DNA from: Persephonella sp.
GTDB lineage: Bacteria > Aquificota > Aquificia > Aquificales > Hydrogenothermaceae
Reading direction: 5' to 3'
Assembly: GCF_015487465.1 (NCBI RefSeq)
Contig: NZ_WFPS01000008.1
Coordinates: 10,139-74,138, forward strand
Length of the DNA: 64,000 nucleotides
The position numbers and the translations under genes are program-made. The notes under the pieces are model-generated. The model made no database searches and was not told the origin of the DNA. It saw only the letters and a list, made by a program, of their open reading frames with translations. This document shows positions 40,302 to 45,298 of the stretch, in pieces (the stretch's first letter is position 1; the number at the start of each line of letters is the position of its first letter).

Positions 40302-41855
40302 CTAATCATAATAAAACCTGTCTTTTATAAACTCAAAAACAAAACAGCTTTCTTTTAAAAGTTTTTCATACCTTTTTATATCAACAGGTTTTGGACTTTT
40401 GATATATATCTCATAGGGAACAGCCTTTATAAAACTGTCTTTTATATAGATTATGTTCACTTTTTCTCCGGGATTTACCGTTATACCCTCTTTTATCAGT
40501 GTGCCTGCTGTTTCTGAAATGTCATTTTTAACCCTGTATTCCTCTACTAACTTTGACAGTCTTTTTCTGACAATAAGATCCTGAACACAGAATTTTCCCT
40601 CCCTTAGCATTACAGCGTATTTTTCAAAAAATGTGTCAATATCTGACAGTTTTTTTAAAAGCTCTTTTTTGTTTTTTGCTTTTGACAGGTGGTTCAGGAA
40701 ATCTTCCTGAAACTTTTTAATAAAACGGGGAGTGTCTGATCTTCTCAGCTCAATGCCCCTCACTTTTATCCTGCCGTCTTTAAACTTTCCGTAAAATCTA
40801 TTTGGAACGCCTACACCGTCTTCTTTTGATGGAACAAATACTATCCAGTCATACACACCTTCAAGTTTAACCTCAAAAGGAACTGTCTCCTCCAGCACCC
40901 CTTTATATTTTCTGGAAAGCTTTTTGTTTATATTGTCCTTTAGCTTGTTATAAGCTTCCTCAGTAGCTCCTTTTTTGTATATCCATATACAGTCTGTCAG
41001 TCCGTGTAATAAACTAAAACCTTCTTTTTCTGCTATATCTTTAACAAAAAGAAGAAGATCCCTTCCTATAGCTGTTGTTGTTTCGTGGGACTCTATTCTT
41101 CCAAAAACAGCATTTTTGTAGCCTAAATAACCAAAGCTGACAACCAGAAGCCATTTTATACCTATCTGCCTTCTGTCGTATTTATCTCCTTCTTTTTTCT
41201 TTAGCTTTTTATATTGTTTTCTTCTTTCTATTAAAAACTTCAGAGTTTTTGGGAGTATCCCCTCTTTTTGTGTGCATATACGGTAGCCGGCGGTAGGCAG
41301 TCTGTGAATGCATTTTTTGTGCTTGCAGTTTATTGTTTCGTAAGAAAGATTGTAGTTTGCGATAATTGATGGATACATTGAGAAAAAATCAAGCTCTGCA
41401 ACATTTTCATAAATTCCTGCCTCCGGTCTGAATGTCAGTCCTCCCCTGTCTATTTTCAACAGGTCAACTGCTGTTTTTGGATCTTCAGGATTGCTTTTCC
41501 TGTAGGGGATCAGATAACCCTGTTCAAAGGCTATCTTCATCTCAAGTGATGTTATTGGCGTTCCTATGGTTGTCCTTGATAGCTGTTGCAGGGGCAATGA
41601 GGATATCCTTGACAGCTCAATCATACCGTCAAGACCTATCTCTCTGTAGAAAAATGAGTTTGAGGGATCTATATGTATCCTTCCTAAGAAAAATGACGAG
41701 TCCGGCATAAAAACAGTTTTTCCGTATGAAAAGAATGATCTTCCTTTCTTTAAAACAGGAACTCCCCCTTCCCTGCTGAGTGATGAAACCCCTGATCTTA
41801 AAAGATTTGGAACAATAAGCTGATCTCCGTGTTCTATGATAAGTATGTCAGGGTC
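40302..41855 (-). CDS. family B DNA polymerase, C-terminal segment (-1 frame relative to the N-terminal segment)
   Basis: The frame is open from 41855 (DPDILIIEHGDQ...) through the ORF-track Met at 41708. Motif A LDFFSMYPSIIANYN, motif B-like KWLLVVSFGYLGY, motif C HGLTDC, thumb-like NRFYGKF..KVRGIELRRSD. Confidence 0.85.
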   Translation of the reverse strand, partial: DPDILIIEHGDQLIVPNLLRSGVSSLSREGGVPVLKKGRSFFSYGKTVFMPDSSFFLGRIHIDPSNSFFYREIGLDGMIELSRISSLPLQQLSRTTIGTPITSLEMKIAFEQGYLIPYRKSNPEDPKTAVDLLKIDRGGLTFRPEAGIYENVAELDFFSMYPSIIANYNLSYETINCKHKKCIHRLPTAGYRICTQKEGILPKTLKFLIERRKQYKKLKKKEGDKYDRRQIGIKWLLVVSFGYLGYKNAVFGRIESHETTTAIGRDLLLFVKDIAEKEGFSLLHGLTDCIWIYKKGATEEAYNKLKDNINKKLSRKYKGVLEETVPFEVKLEGVYDWIVFVPSKEDGVGVPNRFYGKFKDGRIKVRGIELRRSDTPRFIKKFQEDFLNHLSKAKNKKELLKKLSDIDTFFEKYAVMLREGKFCVQDLIVRKRLSKLVEEYRVKNDISETAGTLIKEGITVNPGEKVNIIYIKDSFIKAVPYEIYIKSPKPVDIKRYEKLLKESCFVFEFIKDRFYYD

Positions 41856-42460
41856 TTTTTTTTTATAAAGTCTGAAAGCTCATCTGTCTGGCTGTCAAAT
41901 ATCAGTGATCTTCCTTCAAAATTGACTATAAGAGGTGGAAGATTTTTTGTGTGATTTGGGTTTTCCCCTTCTGTTTCAGGTTTTATCTCCATAATTTTCA
42001 GGGGAAATACCATGTAGTCTGTACTTGAGTAATCATCAATCTTTTTGTAAAGGGTTTTTCCATTTTTACAGATCTCCTCAAGCTGGCAGAAAGGAAATAT
42101 CTTTTTTTCAAACATAAAAAGCTGTGAAGGGGTCAGCTGGAGGTTGTAAAGGTCTGTTTCCTGAAACTCTTTTCTACTTTTTACAAAGTTTACCGCCTTA
42201 TGGTAAACGGCAGGACTGTCTGACACGATTTTAAAAAGCTGTATCTCCCCATCAATAAGATCTTTTTTTCTTGTTTTTTTTATCTTTATACTGTTTCCAA
42301 ATCTCTTTTTTAGCAGTTTTAAAGCTTTTGTATCCTCTGCTTTGATAAAAAAGTAGGGTCTGAACCTTCTGAAAACAGACTTTCTATCTCCTTTTTCTCC
42401 TATGAGCCACAGGACTATACCGTAAGAGTTTGAGTAAACATCAAGGATCTGGTATCTCAT
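41834..42460 (-). CDS. family B DNA polymerase, N-terminal segment (ends at TAG 12 nt past the A9 tract)
   Basis: MRYQILDVYS...FRPYFFIK is a PolB N-terminal-domain pattern. The frame ends ..DFIKKKTLTYLS*. Confidence 0.8.
   Translation of the reverse strand: MRYQILDVYSNSYGIVLWLIGEKGDRKSVFRRFRPYFFIKAEDTKALKLLKKRFGNSIKIKKTRKKDLIDGEIQLFKIVSDSPAVYHKAVNFVKSRKEFQETDLYNLQLTPSQLFMFEKKIFPFCQLEEICKNGKTLYKKIDDYSSTDYMVFPLKIMEIKPETEGENPNHTKNLPPLIVNFEGRSLIFDSQTDELSDFIKKKTLTYLS
41855..41864 (-). other. A9 tract + G containing an in-phase A AAA AAG heptamer at the polB frame break
   Basis: The coding strand reads ATA AAA AAA AAG ACC. A -1 slip (or an A10 tract) reads GAC CCT GAC... and fuses both polB segments without a stop. 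Confidence 0.7.
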
Positions 42461-42689
42461 CTTTTATCCTCTGGATCTGTTTTTCTATCTCAATCAAAAT
42501 TCCAAAGAGGATGATTTCCATAGGATATACAGATGGGGCGTTTCCTATAGCCTGTGAATGCTTTTTTGCGTAAGAAAAAAGCCTGTCAAGTATCTGTCTG
42601 TCTTCTTTCCTCAAGGCTTTTCTAAACTCTGACAGCTCTTTTTGTTTCAGTTTCACAAGCTGTGTTGCAGAAGGCACAGTTTTTCCCAT
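42441..42689 (-). CDS. hypothetical 82-aa helical protein (lexA-polB cassette member)
   Basis: Its start lies 1 nt after the upstream stop codon, and its 3' end overlaps the polB start by 20 nt. No recognised motif. Confidence 0.5.
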   Translation of the reverse strand: MGKTVPSATQLVKLKQKELSEFRKALRKEDRQILDRLFSYAKKHSQAIGNAPSVYPMEIILFGILIEIEKQIQRIKDEIPDP

Positions 42690-42690
42690 C

Positions 42691-43137
42691 TCAGTTGTCC
42701 ATTGATATGTTTGTTATCATGAAGTTTTCTCCAACAACAAAAACCGGAATATCAATCCTGTTTATAAATGCCAGAGCAGATGTGAAAGAGTTTTCCCTCT
42801 CTTTATCAGGAATGCTCTGATCCTTTAAAAGAGTTTCTATGTCTGATATAACAAGAACATCAGGGTTCTCTTTTATAGCTTTTTCCACAGCTTTTTTAAG
42901 CTGAAATATATTAAATACTCTTATTATTTTTATTTTCTCCAGAAGCTTTTCAGCATTAATCTTTTCAAATTTTGCAGCGTTAGATATCAAAAAAGGATTA
43001 AACCTATTCCCACAGTCTATAAGAGATACTTTCTGTGATCTTCTTGTAAATTTGTAAATAAGGTAGTGGTAGTGATATTTTCCGTTTTTTATCTCTATTT
43101 TGTTTTTTAGCCGATGAAGAAGATGTCCTTTTTTCAT
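42691..43137 (-). CDS. RecA/RadB-fold-like protein lacking a Walker A motif (ImuA/SulA-like)
   Basis: KVSLIDCGNRFNPFLI...IKIIRVFNIFQL...NPDVLVISDIETLL matches the strand/helix pattern after the P-loop in RecA/Rad51/KaiC-type cores. No GxxxxGK[ST] is present. The ATG lies 1 nt after the lexA stop. Confidence 0.4.
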   Translation of the reverse strand: MKKGHLLHRLKNKIEIKNGKYHYHYLIYKFTRRSQKVSLIDCGNRFNPFLISNAAKFEKINAEKLLEKIKIIRVFNIFQLKKAVEKAIKENPDVLVISDIETLLKDQSIPDKERENSFTSALAFINRIDIPVFVVGENFMITNISMDN

Positions 43138-43138
43138 C

Positions 43139-43756
43139 TTAAAACCTCCTTTTCAGTCCTTTAAATGATCTTATGATCCCTTTTACTACCCCCTGAACCT
43201 GAACCCTCTCAGCCTCAAAATACATAGGCTCCATATTAGAGTTTGCCGGAACGAGCTTCACAAAACCTTTTTCCCGGTAAAATCTTTTCAGAGTTGCCTC
43301 CTCCCCATCAATAAGAACAACGGCAACCTCTCCGTTCAGAACATCTTTTCTGTTTTCAACGATTATTATGTCACCGTCTAATATGTGATCTTCAATCATT
43401 GAGTATCCTTTAACCCTCAGAGCGTAGCAGTTTTCACAATCTATCAGGTCTGTAATATCCACATGCTCAAAAATATCTTCCTGAATCTGTATAGGTTCCC
43501 CTGCAGCTATCTCCCCATAAAAAGGAAATCTTAATGGGTCTTCATCAAACAACCTATCCCTGTTTATTCTGAATTTTCCCCTTCCTGTTTTCTGCAGGTA
43601 TCCTTCCTTCACAAGCTTTTGCAAATGCTCATGTATCGTTGAAACAGCAGAAAGACCAAAATGATTGGCGATCTCTTTCAGTGTCGGGTTGTAACCTTTC
43701 TGGTAGGTAAAACGGGCTATAAACTGCAAAATCTCTTTCTGTCTTTTTGTGAGCAA
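43139..43756 (-). CDS. lexA: LexA repressor (S24 peptidase)
   Basis: N-terminal winged helix (LTKRQKEILQFI...GYNPTLKEIA), cleavage-site region YGEIAAGEPI, Ser in GYSM and Lys in ATLKRF. TTG start with AGGAGG 8 nt upstream. Confidence 0.9.
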   Translation of the reverse strand: MLTKRQKEILQFIARFTYQKGYNPTLKEIANHFGLSAVSTIHEHLQKLVKEGYLQKTGRGKFRINRDRLFDEDPLRFPFYGEIAAGEPIQIQEDIFEHVDITDLIDCENCYALRVKGYSMIEDHILDGDIIIVENRKDVLNGEVAVVLIDGEEATLKRFYREKGFVKLVPANSNMEPMYFEAERVQVQGVVKGIIRSFKGLKRRF

Positions 43757-43852
43757 TTTCCTAACCTCCTGATTTTTAATATAACCGAAAAAAAACCGAA
43801 AATCAAGATGATAAAAATCAATAAAGGTTTATATTTTTAGTGGAGGGTAAAT

Positions 43853-45298
43853 ATGGAGATTTTCCTGAAACTTCCAAATGAGATTGAGGTTATACAGCCT
43901 GCTGTTGATTTTGTTTACAGATGGGCTGTTGAAAACGGTCTTGGCGAGAAAGAGGCTGAGGAGTTTGCCACAGCTTTTGATGAGCTTATAACAGATGTTG
44001 TTCTGTTTGCTTTTGAAGAAAAGGGTGAGTTTTCTGTATTTTTAAAAAGTAGTCTTTCACAGCTTGAGATAACAGTTCAGGAGCTTGGAGAACCATTTGA
44101 TCCTGAAAGGCATAAGTATTCTGTTGAAAGATTTATCAGGGAAGGAAATTTTGATGGTGCTGGATTTGAGATAATAAGAAATCTTGCTGATGATTTCATT
44201 TATATATACAAGGGAAGGGCAGGGAAAGAGTTCAGGATCATAAAGTATATAAAACACAGACATATCACACATATACTCCCTGAAGAAAAATTAAAGGCAG
44301 AGGCTGAAAAGGCTGTAGGCTATCAGATATCCCCTGTTTCTGAAGAAGATGCTGAGGATATAGCAAGGCTGATATACAGGTCTTACGGTTATACTTATCC
44401 TAAAGAAGACATGTATTACCCTGACAGGATAGTAAAAGCCATAAAGGAAGGGAGAAAGTTTGGTGTTATAGTGAGAACAGATAAAGGGGAAGCTGTTGGG
44501 TATTTTGCTGTCATAAAGATGCCAGATTCTAACATCGGCGAGGTTGGGGAGGTTGTTGTATCACCAAAACACAGGGGAAAAGGAATAATGAAAATGATGA
44601 TGAAGGCTCTTATAGATATGGCAAGATCAAAAGGTCTTTACGGTCTGTTTGGGGAGGCTGTAACAGTTCATACCATAAGCCAGAAGGTAAACGCAAAATA
44701 CGGCTTTAAATCAACAGCTCTTGTTCTTGGATTTTTTCCCTATGCAAAATACAAAGGTTTTGAACACAAACAGCAGAGAATATCTGTGGTTATTGATTTT
44801 CTTCCCCTTGTTGAAAGAAAAGAAGTTAAGGTTTTTCTGCCTGATCCCTACAAAAATATACTGAAAAAAATATACAAAAATCTGGGAATAACAGTTATAA
44901 ATATGCCTGTGAGAAAACAGCCCTCTCTAAAAGAAAGATCAAAGATTGATCTGCAGATAAATTACAGATTTTCTGTGGCGGTTATTGTTGTTGATAGATA
45001 CGGAAAGGACTTTTTTAGCCGTCTGGATAAAAAGATAGACTCCCTCAAGAAAAAAGGGATAAAAGGGATATATATTGATCTTCCCCTTGATGATCCTTAC
45101 ACCAAAGAAGCTGCAAAACAGCTTATGGAAAGAGGTTTTATCTTCAGCGGGCTTATGCCCCTTTTCCATAAAAATAAGGATCACCTGAGAATGCAGATGC
45201 TGACAGAAAATATAGATCTTAGATGGATCAATACCTTTTCAAATATGGCTAAGAAGATAAAGAGGTTCATAAACAGACAGATAAAAAAGAGGGATTAA
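43853..45298 (+). CDS. RsbW/SpoIIAB-like HATPase domain fused to a GNAT acetyltransferase domain and an uncharacterised C-terminal region
   Basis: The N-terminal ~130 aa resembles anti-sigma kinases (FDELITDVVLFAF, VQELGEPFDP). The GNAT motif A is VVVSPKHRGKGIMKMMM. GGAGGG RBS. Confidence 0.65.
   Translation: MEIFLKLPNEIEVIQPAVDFVYRWAVENGLGEKEAEEFATAFDELITDVVLFAFEEKGEFSVFLKSSLSQLEITVQELGEPFDPERHKYSVERFIREGNFDGAGFEIIRNLADDFIYIYKGRAGKEFRIIKYIKHRHITHILPEEKLKAEAEKAVGYQISPVSEEDAEDIARLIYRSYGYTYPKEDMYYPDRIVKAIKEGRKFGVIVRTDKGEAVGYFAVIKMPDSNIGEVGEVVVSPKHRGKGIMKMMMKALIDMARSKGLYGLFGEAVTVHTISQKVNAKYGFKSTALVLGFFPYAKYKGFEHKQQRISVVIDFLPLVERKEVKVFLPDPYKNILKKIYKNLGITVINMPVRKQPSLKERSKIDLQINYRFSVAVIVVDRYGKDFFSRLDKKIDSLKKKGIKGIYIDLPLDDPYTKEAAKQLMERGFIFSGLMPLFHKNKDHLRMQMLTENIDLRWINTFSNMAKKIKRFINRQIKKRD

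Follow-up and report, generated by a model that had tools for sequence, protein, structure and literature searches.

A PolB2 mutasome operon in Persephonella and the likely expression of its polymerase by slippage at a conserved A9 tract

We studied a 64,000-nucleotide stretch of DNA from Persephonella sp. (the window) and found that it contains a DNA polymerase gene with unusual motifs and a split reading frame. This gene very probably encodes the catalytic subunit of the bacterial PolB2 (clade G2) "mutasome": it stands at the end of a lexA - iRadA - PPB2 - polB2 operon, and it would give full-length protein through slippage at a run of nine A's (A9). The odd motifs are the published signature of PolB2 (B2/G2), a damage-tolerance polymerase that bacteria acquired from archaea. 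The motif pattern itself is nothing new, and the operon type has already been catalogued. The aspect that looks new is that polB2 is split at A9.

The polymerase gene and its motifs

The gene and its two reading frames lie as follows:

40302..42460, minus strand: the whole polB2 gene, with the reading frame interrupted at 41855..41864
41834..42460, minus strand: polB2 ORF1, 208 aa in the zero frame; it covers the N-terminal domain and, of the dead exonuclease domain, the first strands, and ends in ..DFIKKKTLTYLS and a stop
40302..41855, minus strand: polB2 ORF2 as counted from the junction, with 517 aa before the stop; it holds the remainder of the exonuclease-like domain, the palm, the fingers, and the thumb

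An earlier note on this DNA dealt with 40989-42010, which is part of the gene, and recognized neither the PolB2 family nor the partners iRadA and PPB2.

Joined across the two frames, PolB2 has about 719 aa, and relatives with an uninterrupted frame have 708-723 aa. ORF2 matches Pfam's DNA_pol_B (PF00136) at 1.9e-36. Structures of archaeal PolB in the PDB match at about 1e-35 with the single sequence (phmmer) and at 2e-87 with a family profile, while DNA polymerase II of E. coli is a distant match (1.5e-6 and 7.7e-22, respectively). An AlphaFold model of a 65%-identical in-frame congener (pLDDT 92.5, pTM 0.90) matches the ternary complexes of the KOD and 9N polymerases over the whole chain (Foldseek TM 0.75), and it has the complete fold of a B-family polymerase, i.e., N-terminal, exonuclease-like, palm, fingers, and thumb domains. 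A complete genome (G019, with a chromosome of 1,838,442 bp), which we take to be Sulfurihydrogenibium YO3AOP1 from the sister genus, encodes a PolB2 that is 59% identical to the window protein. The link to archaea was assessed with bacterial relatives of the window protein: a congener is about 35% similar to archaeal PolB2 members, and archaeal loci with upstream iRadA-PPB2 match L003, a bacterial family member with 65% identity to the window protein, at 1e-124 or below. A metagenome search with the window protein itself returned a single locus, which is a near-duplicate of one of our genomes (G002). For synteny, we used a set of contigs with at least 80 distant relatives, none of which is from the Hydrogenothermaceae among the matches listed.

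The motifs of the exonuclease and polymerase domains are at these positions:

41975..41998, minus strand: Exo I candidate, KIMEIKPE; D-x-E is not conserved by column counts
41799..41834, minus strand: Exo II position, EHGDQLIVPNLL; in alignments, Ile stands where the catalytic Asp would be
41607..41684, minus strand: shortened Exo III region, GRIHIDPSNSFFYREIGLDGMIELSR, without Y-x3-D; its H, D, N, S, F, and E vary little or not at all
41628..41654, minus strand: FFYREIGLD
41439..41453, minus strand: D(K/R) motif, IDRGG, in the loop before motif A; predicted contact of the PPB2 N-terminal arm
41361..41393, minus strand: motif A, LDFFSMYPSII, with the catalytic Asp, the steric-gate Tyr, and an invariant Glu two residues ahead of the Asp
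41130..41156, minus strand: motif B, KWLLVVSFG
40989..41006, minus strand: motif C, HGLTDC, with the second Asp alone retained

The exonuclease motifs had been described by eye as degenerate, and alignments and column counts bear this out. Both phmmer and the family profile place IIEHGDQLIVPNL on ITYNGDNFDFAYL of archaeal PolB, with the catalytic Asp of Exo II replaced by Ile, and this column is hydrophobic across the family (51 L or I among the 53 relatives tallied). At Exo I, the HMMER alignment to KOD and the strand order of the model disagree about the register, and D-x-E is conserved across the family in neither of the two. As for Exo III, no Y-x3-D can be recognized in the shortened segment of the window protein or in the family alignment. 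From GRxHxD to ELxR, the family has about 17 residues; in KOD, this spacing is about 60 residues. In the words of Kazlauskas et al. 2020 (PMC7544198), Exo III of B2/G2 is "missing altogether." It had also been proposed that a proper alignment, including archaeal PolB, might put the carboxylates back in register. It does not restore them at the Exo sites, and at motif C it gives the second Asp only. The exonuclease domain retains its fold, but its metal-binding carboxylates are gone.

In the polymerase domain, the positions and residues that had been read for motifs A, B, and C are all correct (on the minus strand). Motif A is intact, as LDFFSMYPS aligns on archaeal LDFRSLYPS. KWLLVVSFG aligns on KILANSYYG, so that the Lys of motif B is retained while Asn becomes Val and Tyr becomes Phe, and HGLTDC aligns on YSDTDG or YGDTDS, which puts Leu at the first Asp of motif C and leaves the second Asp in place. 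We do not agree that these motifs are "relaxed." Motif C has the form H-[AG]-[IL]-[TVI]-D in 53 of 53 aligned relatives and in 77 of 79 full-length ORFs of the family, three archaeal ones included, and motif B has the same K, V, F, and G in every one of the 53 aligned relatives. Judging from this conservation, the non-canonical residues of motifs B and C are a fixed signature of the clade and not private decay. The D(K/R) motif is similarly constant (D in 53/53 relatives and K or R in 51/53); its role as the contact for the PPB2 arm is a prediction from PMC11791011.

Could the protein be an inactive scaffold, in which polymerase activity disappeared together with the exonuclease and whose only remaining role as a subunit is structural or in DNA binding? 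Leu stands in for the first Asp of motif C, motif B has neither its Asn nor its Tyr, and the exonuclease site is gone. Also, inactivation was proposed for the PolB2 clade by Rogozin et al. 2008 (PMC2527604), so when the earlier note likened the protein to inactivated archaeal PolBs, it was naming PolB2's own family. That view of the family has been overturned by the active Dpo2 (PMC8764526): the Dpo2 of Sulfolobus, whose motif C reads I-I-D, polymerizes robustly. Published precedent, in Dpo2 and in the primer-independent PolBs, suggests that the missing first Asp is tolerated. Furthermore, the Asp of motif A, the second Asp of motif C, and the Lys of motif B are invariant (53/53 relatives), and the steric gate is Tyr in 48/53, with Phe in the other relatives. 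We consider a scaffold very unlikely.

The operon and the lexA promoter

Upstream of polB2, the operon contains:

42441..42689, minus strand: PPB2, the small partner, 82 aa, with the N-terminus MGKT
42691..43137, minus strand: iRadA, a protein of the RadA/Rad51 fold without a P-loop, 148 aa
43139..43756, minus strand: lexA, 205 aa, TTG start; matches Pfam's LexA_DNA_bind (2.7e-16) and Peptidase_S24 (2.5e-28)
43778..43806, minus strand: lexA promoter, with the -35 element TTGATT (43801..43806), a 17-nt spacer, and the -10 element TATATT (43778..43783)
43785..43800, minus strand: direct repeat TTCGG-N6-TTCGG within the promoter spacer, a candidate LexA operator

The two genes directly upstream of polB2 are an inactivated homologue of RadA and the small PPB2 protein. 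A Pfam search with iRadA gave no match. Its family profile matches RadA ATPase domains (1.5e-9) with the GKT of Walker A left unmatched, and a model of the protein (pLDDT 91.5) has RadA ATPase domains as its top Foldseek matches (TM 0.64-0.70). Where GxxxxGK[TS] is expected, the window's iRadA has a three-residue loop (NGK). In 70 of 87 loci among the matches listed, the ORF that immediately precedes polB2 belongs to the PPB2 family, as gathered with jackhmmer. Most N-termini of this family read MG[RK]T, despite crude start calls, and PPB2 is known to carry an N-terminal "MGRT" arm (PMC11791011). PPB2 proteins are described as small, helical, and trimeric.

The order in the window is lexA, iRadA, PPB2, polB2. 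Among the matches listed, homologues of iRadA directly precede PPB2-PolB2 in 55 of 79 scored loci; the order iRadA-PPB2-PolB2 recurs in 54 of the 79, and lexA is directly upstream in 22 of these 54. This is the published order of the bacterial operon, near which lexA is enriched (Timinskas 2025, PMC11791011). More specifically, the operon resembles the type 1a bacterial PolB2 mutasome (PMC11791011; clade G2 of PMC7544198) in its gene order, in having lexA directly upstream, and in encoding a RadA homologue that lacks the P-loop. It also shares the MG(R/K)T N-terminus of PPB2, the dead exonuclease, the "LTD" form of motif C, and the D(K/R) motif. In the portion of the supplement of PMC11791011 that was available, Sulfurihydrogenibium YO3AOP1 is catalogued as LexA/iRadA/PPB2/PolB2 of type 1a, with "LTD," and Persephonella was not found. 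Three features set Persephonella apart from type 1a: polB2 has a conserved split, with a -1 shift at A9; iRadA is short, at 148 aa versus roughly 180-280 elsewhere (from crude start calls); and the candidate operator is a direct repeat, not a palindrome.

The promoter appears to be conserved. A block of the form CTTGATTTTCGG..TTTCGGTTA[TA]A[AT]T precedes lexA in the window, and five of the six related loci that we examined have it too (L094, L108, L109, L111, and L112), with diverged flanks. In the extraction of the sixth locus (L110), which starts at codon 2 of lexA, the block was not seen. TTCGG-N6-TTCGG occurs once in the 1.83-Mb genome, at the lexA promoter, where about 0.3 occurrences would be expected. 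A search for a palindromic SOS box gave no match. We infer from these patterns that LexA binds the direct repeat.

The split reading frame

The frame of polB2 is interrupted at a single site:

41855..41864, minus strand: slip site, A9 followed by G; the zero frame reads ATA AAA AAA AAG and contains the heptamer A AAA AAG

If the reading shifts by -1, or if the mRNA gains one A, then ..DFIKKK runs on into DPDILII.., which gives ..DFIKKKDPDILI.. at the junction. The comparison of sequences points to programmed slippage rather than to a pseudogene. It is probable that Persephonella's PolB2 is expressed in this way at the conserved A9, and that these genomes have at least three conserved sites of recoding at A9 in all, the others being in copA and in a gene of the CCA-adding/poly(A)-polymerase family.

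The split recurs. A9 with split frames is present in the DNA of four Persephonella genomes (G000, G002, G014, and G022), and A AAA AAG is in phase in four genomes from two GTDB genera. G014 is the finished 1,930,284-bp chromosome of P. marina EX-H1, which was reportedly Sanger-sequenced. Copies of polB2 that are in frame have A10 or A6/A7 at this position. In relatives, ORF1 is annotated as a separate protein of 207 aa that ends in KKKTLTC and a stop. Public annotation truncates polB2 in the Persephonella copies that we examined, with the exception of one metagenome-assembled genome (MAG) with A10, and Persephonella is probably missing from the surveys of PolB2 because of this truncation.

That MAG belongs to a cluster of at least 90% identity, and its polB2 is intact, at 718 aa. 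It raises the suspicion that A10 is the true tract everywhere and that A9 is a homopolymer error of sequencing or assembly, as does the fact that two more genes in the same draft genome are broken at A9. Nevertheless, A9 is seen in independent assemblies, including the finished chromosome of P. marina; about 40 Persephonella contigs from several sources have only truncated forms; and at other sites, these assemblies do resolve tracts of A10 and A15. Also, the two other broken genes, which are copA and the gene for the CCA-adding enzyme (cca), have breaks at A9 that are conserved across genomes as well. (The split in copA separates a product with the HMA domain from the full ATPase.) A sequencing or assembly error therefore seems highly improbable.

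It is hardly credible that polB2 is a pseudogene, in which the frameshift at A9 is inactivating and the operon's polymerase is dead in the Persephonella genome. To be sure, the annotated frame is broken, public annotation offers truncated proteins only, and PolB2 is patchy in this bacterial family (matches in 11 of 50 genomes). But the identical break is found in lineages that are 50-65% identical, and neither half has any further stop or indel. Both halves are under purifying selection, with dN/dS of 0.08-0.14 between A9-bearing pairs. In the first 57 codons after the junction, dN/dS is just 0.03 (P. marina versus G022), and P. marina has no start codon there. More broadly, no ATG, GTG, or TTG is present in the 105 codons after the junction in P. 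marina. We also considered a polymerase made in two pieces by internal initiation, and we rejected it because those 105 codons, which are strongly conserved, contain no start in P. marina.

Another possibility is that the tract is a contingency switch, i.e., that replication slippage toggles the DNA between A9 and A10 and that a subpopulation of the cells can express a mutator polymerase. Long homopolymers are hypermutable, and alleles with A9 and with A10 occur within one cluster at 90% identity. On the other hand, all of the other Persephonella copies examined are split, with A9 wherever the DNA was read, and we saw no A8 or A11. ON/OFF switching would also make less sense for copA and the CCA-enzyme gene, which share the A9 design. 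So we think that phase variation is unlikely as the explanation, and it can coexist with slippage at the level of the transcript.

If slippage is programmed, as we favor, then RNA polymerase is most likely what slips, and possibly the ribosome makes a -1 shift on A AAA AAG. The 60 nt downstream of the slip site do not fold better than shuffled sequences (z from -1.0 to +0.7), which gives no sign of a stimulatory hairpin, and no conserved element resembling a Shine-Dalgarno (SD) sequence lies upstream. RNA polymerase slippage on A9 does not need such stimulators. As in E. coli, the only tRNA-Lys that we detected is tRNA-Lys(UUU). The closest precedents are the dnaX gene of Thermus thermophilus (transcriptional slippage at A9) and dnaX and copA of E. 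coli (-1 ribosomal frameshifting), in which, as here, an A9 tract and an in-phase A AAA AAG yield two products from one gene (reviewed in PMC5009743). The direction is reversed, however: reading dnaX in the zero frame yields the long product and slippage the short one, while for Persephonella's polB2, slippage would give the long, functional product. Stimulators like those of E. coli dnaX (SD or hairpin) were not found at the slip site of polB2. Our literature search found no paper on frameshifting in Persephonella.

Likely function and known counterparts

Given published work on this family, PolB2, iRadA, and PPB2 would assemble as PolB2 - iRadA - (PPB2)3. DNA damage would lead LexA to cleave itself, which would induce the complex, and the exonuclease-free polymerase would extend primer ends opposite mismatches and lesions. 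In Persephonella, full-length PolB2 would be made only upon slippage at A9, through one extra A from RNA polymerase or a -1 shift of the ribosome. Slippage would keep the polymerase scarce, and it would also yield the 208-aa N-terminal product.

Polymerase activity and the role as an extender are extrapolated from the Sulfolobus enzymes and so are expectations for the window's PolB2; our literature search found no assay of a bacterial PolB2. Dpo2 from Sulfolobus is an active and robust polymerase without exonuclease activity, and it extends from mismatches and lesions (PMC8764526). The earlier note had suggested a proofreading-deficient enzyme with a role in the SOS response, and the dead exonuclease and the LexA-headed operon make damage tolerance the best reading. 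It had also called the enzyme "error-prone," and here Dpo2 gives a divided answer: it efficiently extends mismatched and lesion-paired termini, but its insertion of nucleotides is accurate (PMC8764526). Like the Persephonella protein, Dpo2 of Sulfolobus islandicus and S. solfataricus (Feng et al. 2022, PMC8764526) lacks the Exo motifs, and the first Asp of its motif C has given way to a hydrophobic residue (I-I-D versus L-T-D). Its damage-inducible operon, which includes iRadA and PPB2, is the counterpart of the Persephonella operon. Dpo2 differs in being archaeal and biochemically characterized, in being under Orc1/Cdc6-type regulation rather than LexA, and in having a more decayed exonuclease domain.

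This complex may be the main translesion activity of the organism because no Y-family polymerase (PF00817) was found in the 99.9%-complete Persephonella genome. In other words, the LexA-PolB2 cassette may be its main translesion system. According to a recent survey, Y-family polymerases are absent or depleted in the Aquificae. If slippage is confirmed, then this would be a case of recoding that limits the expression of a mutagenic polymerase, as a low-efficiency step on top of control by LexA. P. marina is a cultivable thermophile, so it would be convenient for the first biochemistry of a bacterial PolB2 complex.

DNA polymerase II of E. coli (polB) is similar in having the B-family fold, control by LexA, and a role in damage tolerance. 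It differs in that it has an active proofreading exonuclease and the canonical DTD at motif C and acts alone. The intact carboxylates of Exo I-III and the DTD that define a Pol II-type enzyme are missing from the window protein. In architecture, the PolB2 operon parallels the ImuA-ImuB-DnaE2 cassette and the Pol V (UmuD'2C-RecA) mutasome, which are LexA-controlled, multi-subunit translesion polymerases with an accessory protein of the RecA fold; these parallels are discussed in PMC11791011. The catalytic subunits are unrelated, though: DnaE2 belongs to the C family and UmuC to the Y family, and these systems have no homology to PolB2 or PPB2.

PolB2 and its active-site motifs

The window comes from a Persephonella, and its minus strand encodes a B-family DNA polymerase, PolB2, that is spread over two overlapping reading frames. 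On re-reading the sequence, we found all of the motifs that the earlier note had quoted by eye:

41834..42460, minus strand: polB2 ORF1, 208 aa
41879 down to 40302, minus strand: polB2 ORF2, open for 525 codons
41975..41998, minus strand: Exo I candidate, KIMEIKPE
41799..41834, minus strand: Exo II, EHGDQLIVPNLL
41628..41654, minus strand: Exo III region, FFYREIGLD
41361..41393, minus strand: motif A, LDFFSMYPSII
about 41393-41399, minus strand: Glu two residues before the motif A Asp
41130..41156, minus strand: motif B, KWLLVVSFG
40989..41006, minus strand: motif C, HGLTDC

When the window polymerase was compared to all PDB chains with phmmer, the best matches were archaeal family-B polymerases (Pyrobaculum 5mdn and KOD 1wn7, E about 1e-35), and with a 55-sequence family profile the match strengthened to 2e-87. 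These alignments bear out that motif A is intact, that motif B is non-canonical, and that motif C has the second Asp only. Specifically, LDFFSMYPS aligns on LDF(R/S)S(L/M)YPS; KWLLVVSFG aligns on K(I/V)(L/M)AN(S/A)xYG, with the Lys retained, Asn changed to Val, and Tyr changed to Phe; and LLHGLTDCIW aligns on VIY(S/G)DTD(G/S), with Leu at the first Asp. The exonuclease carboxylates are indeed missing. In Exo II, IIEHGDQLIVPNL aligns on ITYNGDNFDFAYL, and the catalytic Asp is Ile. Exo I is the one motif whose register is doubtful: HMMER puts the FDIET strand of KOD a few residues upstream, while the strand order of the structure model favours the by-eye register (M-E-I-K on F-D-I-E). In either register, the family lacks a conserved D-x-E. 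Also, the family alignment has no Y-x3-D between GRxHxD and ELxR, which are about 17 residues apart in PolB2. The corresponding interval in KOD is about 60 residues.

The unusual motifs are signatures of the clade rather than signs of decay. We ran a word-seeded protein search with an intact 718-aa relative (65% identical to the window protein) as the query, and of 8000 candidates scored, 1828 proteins matched at E<=1e-10. Matches from this search occur in Aquificota, Nitrospirota, Acidobacteriota, Bacteroidota, Chloroflexota, and other groups. At least 593 loci are in species-representative genomes, Thermoproteota and Bathyarchaeia among them. Closer to the window, the PolB2 of G019 (a complete genome of genus g8, which we take to be Sulfurihydrogenibium sp. 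YO3AOP1) is 59% identical. Column counts over 53 aligned relatives were as follows:

Residue conservation in 53 aligned relatives of PolB2
Exo II Asp column: hydrophobic, given as Leu/Ile in 51/53 (top four residues L24, I23, T3, V1)
D(K/R)GG loop Asp (before motif A): 53/53
Motif A Asp: 53/53
Steric-gate position: Tyr 48/53, Phe 5/53
Motif B K, V, F, and G positions: 53/53 each
Motif C H-[AG]-[IL]-[TVI]-D: 53/53

Furthermore, among 79 full-length family ORFs, 78 have Glu at the -2 position of the motif A Asp (E-x-D-F-x-S-M-Y-P), and these include three from archaea. In canonical PolBs, the position is occupied by Tyr or a hydrophobic residue. Motif C lacks its first Asp, and we speculate that this Glu might make up for the loss.

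The predicted structure of the 718-aa relative (pLDDT 92.5, pTM 0.90) has a TM score of 0.75 to KOD/9N ternary complexes. Because this model covers the whole PolB fold, the exonuclease domain is still there as a fold.

These motif features are already known as defining features of PolB2/G2; Kazlauskas et al. (PMC7544198) concluded that the bacterial group, G2, came from Archaea by transfer. The clade was once predicted to be inactivated (Rogozin et al. 2008, PMC2527604). More recently, Feng et al. 2022 (PMC8764526) found that the PolB2 of Sulfolobus, Dpo2, is robust as a polymerase and lacks detectable exonuclease. Its insertion of nucleotides is accurate, and it efficiently extends mismatches and lesion-paired termini. 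They noted that bacterial G2 has the substitutions of both Exo II and motif C as well. So the suggestion that the window protein is an inactive scaffold corresponds to the superseded 2008 view. The suggestion of an SOS polymerase is supported, with a refinement: by analogy to Dpo2, whose insertion is accurate, the window PolB2 probably works as an extender and not as a sloppy inserter.

A conserved A9 frame break

The two reading frames of polB2 meet at TTT ATA AAA AAA AAG ACC, where an A9 tract includes an in-phase A AAA AAG heptamer:

41855..41864, minus strand: polB2 slip site, A9+G

Either a -1 shift or one additional A in the mRNA would fuse ..DFIKKK to DPDILII.. and give a protein of about 719 aa. 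The identical A9 and frame change are found in G002, from the same genus (91% identity), and in two genomes from another GTDB genus, G014 (P. marina EX-H1) and G022 (64% and 50-52% identity in the two halves). Other relatives are in frame, with A10 in G008 and A6/A7 in G019 and G063 (genus g8, the Sulfurihydrogenibium group). In P. marina EX-H1 (contig 1, 1,930,284 bp), the annotated protein is a truncated form of 409 aa (ACO04556.1/WP_012676793). In eight clusters built at 90% identity, the forms carried by about 40 Persephonella contigs are all truncated (409-468 aa), and a single MAG has an intact 718-aa gene; ORF1 is annotated separately as 207 aa ending in KKKTLTC*.

A sequencing error is an unlikely cause of the break. 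A pseudogene can be rejected because the break is conserved, because both halves have dN/dS of 0.08-0.14 in pairs of A9-bearing genes, and because dN/dS is low after the junction. An internal start for the downstream half is ruled out by P. marina: the 105 codons 3' of the junction include neither ATG nor GTG nor TTG. The first 57 of these codons have dN/dS of 0.03 versus G022, so the downstream part is translated. From these sequence comparisons, we conclude that the A9 break is likely bypassed in vivo. This conserved recoding is the part of the polB2 finding that is worth testing at the bench.

As to the mechanism, the bypass may be by slippage of RNA polymerase or by a ribosomal -1 shift. 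Runs of nine A/T allow efficient slippage by bacterial RNA polymerase, for example in Thermus dnaX (reviewed in PMC5009743). Transcriptional slippage fits because there is no conserved stimulatory hairpin or SD-like element near the slip site. On the side of the ribosome, having tRNA-Lys(UUU) alone is the condition for shiftiness of A AAA AAG in E. coli, and likewise the complete genomes of P. marina and Sulfurihydrogenibium yielded only UUU genes for tRNA-Lys. Switching of the DNA itself between A9 and A10, as phase variation, may also play a part.

Long A/T runs are rare in the genome of the window:

A/T runs in the genome of the window, by length
Length 7: 2517
Length 8: 626
Length 9: 38
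Length 10: 1
Length 15: 1

The 16-fold drop from length 8 to length 9, along with only two runs longer than 9, suggests that, a few retained sites aside, runs of 9 or more are selected against. At three A9 tracts, a gene is broken into two long ORFs, with a -1 shift needed to join them: the one in polB2 and two outside the window:

Contig C65:9992-10000 (locus L095 2593-2601): copA, GAA AAA AAA AGT, then stop
Contig C67:6475-6483 (locus L096 1076-1084): CCA-adding/poly(A)-polymerase-family gene, CTA AAA AAA AAG

In copA, a 197-aa open frame with the HMA domain is followed by the 646-aa P-type ATPase body in the -1 frame, and the split is kept in all five relatives tested (G002, G008, G014, G022, and G019). 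Frameshifting is known in copA of E. coli too, but copA in this genome needs the shift for its long product. In the CCA-family gene, the head and RNA-binding domains (332 aa) are separated from the HD domain (218 aa). This break is kept in 4/4 other Persephonella tested; G019 has A10, in frame.

The lexA-polB2 operon

Timinskas et al. 2025 (PMC11791011) showed a tight linkage of PolB2 to two partners: iRadA, which is a RadA with a dead ATPase, and PPB2, which is small and helical and has an MGRT arm at its N-terminus. Bacterial loci always keep the order iRadA-PPB2-PolB2, with lexA enriched nearby, and the proteins are predicted to form a PolB2-iRadA-(PPB2)3 complex. The genes of the window and their order match this operon:

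43778-43806, minus strand: lexA promoter, TTGATT-N17-TATATT, with a TTCGG-N6-TTCGG direct repeat in the spacer
43139..43756, minus strand: lexA (Pfam LexA_DNA_bind and Peptidase_S24)
42691..43137, minus strand: iRadA, 148 aa
42441..42689, minus strand: PPB2, 82 aa, N-terminus MGKT

In the accessible part of that study's supplement, Sulfurihydrogenibium sp. YO3AOP1, from the sister genus, is catalogued as "1a (iRadA-PPB2-PolB2)" with LexA and the motif "LTD", and Persephonella was not found there. Of 87 polB2 loci fetched, 70 have a PPB2 family member as the next gene upstream. The full iRadA-PPB2-PolB2 order is present in 54 of 79 scored loci, 22 of which have lexA directly upstream. The iRadA family profile matches RadA ATPase domains (1.5e-9) with the Walker A GKT unmatched, and the window iRadA has a three-residue loop in place of the P-loop. 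Its predicted structure (pLDDT 91.5) superposes on RadA ATPase domains with TM scores of 0.64-0.70.

Of six related loci examined, five share with the window the promoter block 5' of lexA, and conservation does not extend to its flanks; the sixth, L110, did not show the block, but its extraction started at codon 2 of lexA. TTCGG-N6-TTCGG occurs once in the 1.83-Mb genome, versus about 0.3 occurrences expected by chance. We regard this repeat, which is not a palindrome, as a candidate LexA operator. If so, the SOS regulon may comprise little beyond the lexA-polB2 operon. A search of the genome, which is 99.9% complete, for Y-family polymerase domains (PF00817) found none, so its sole dedicated translesion polymerase may be the PolB2 cassette. 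A 2026 survey reported that Y-family members are absent or depleted in Aquificae.

Divergent from lexA, the plus strand (43853-45298) encodes a 481-aa fusion of HATPase_c_2 (anti-sigma kinase-like) and GNAT acetyltransferase domains, as identified by Pfam.
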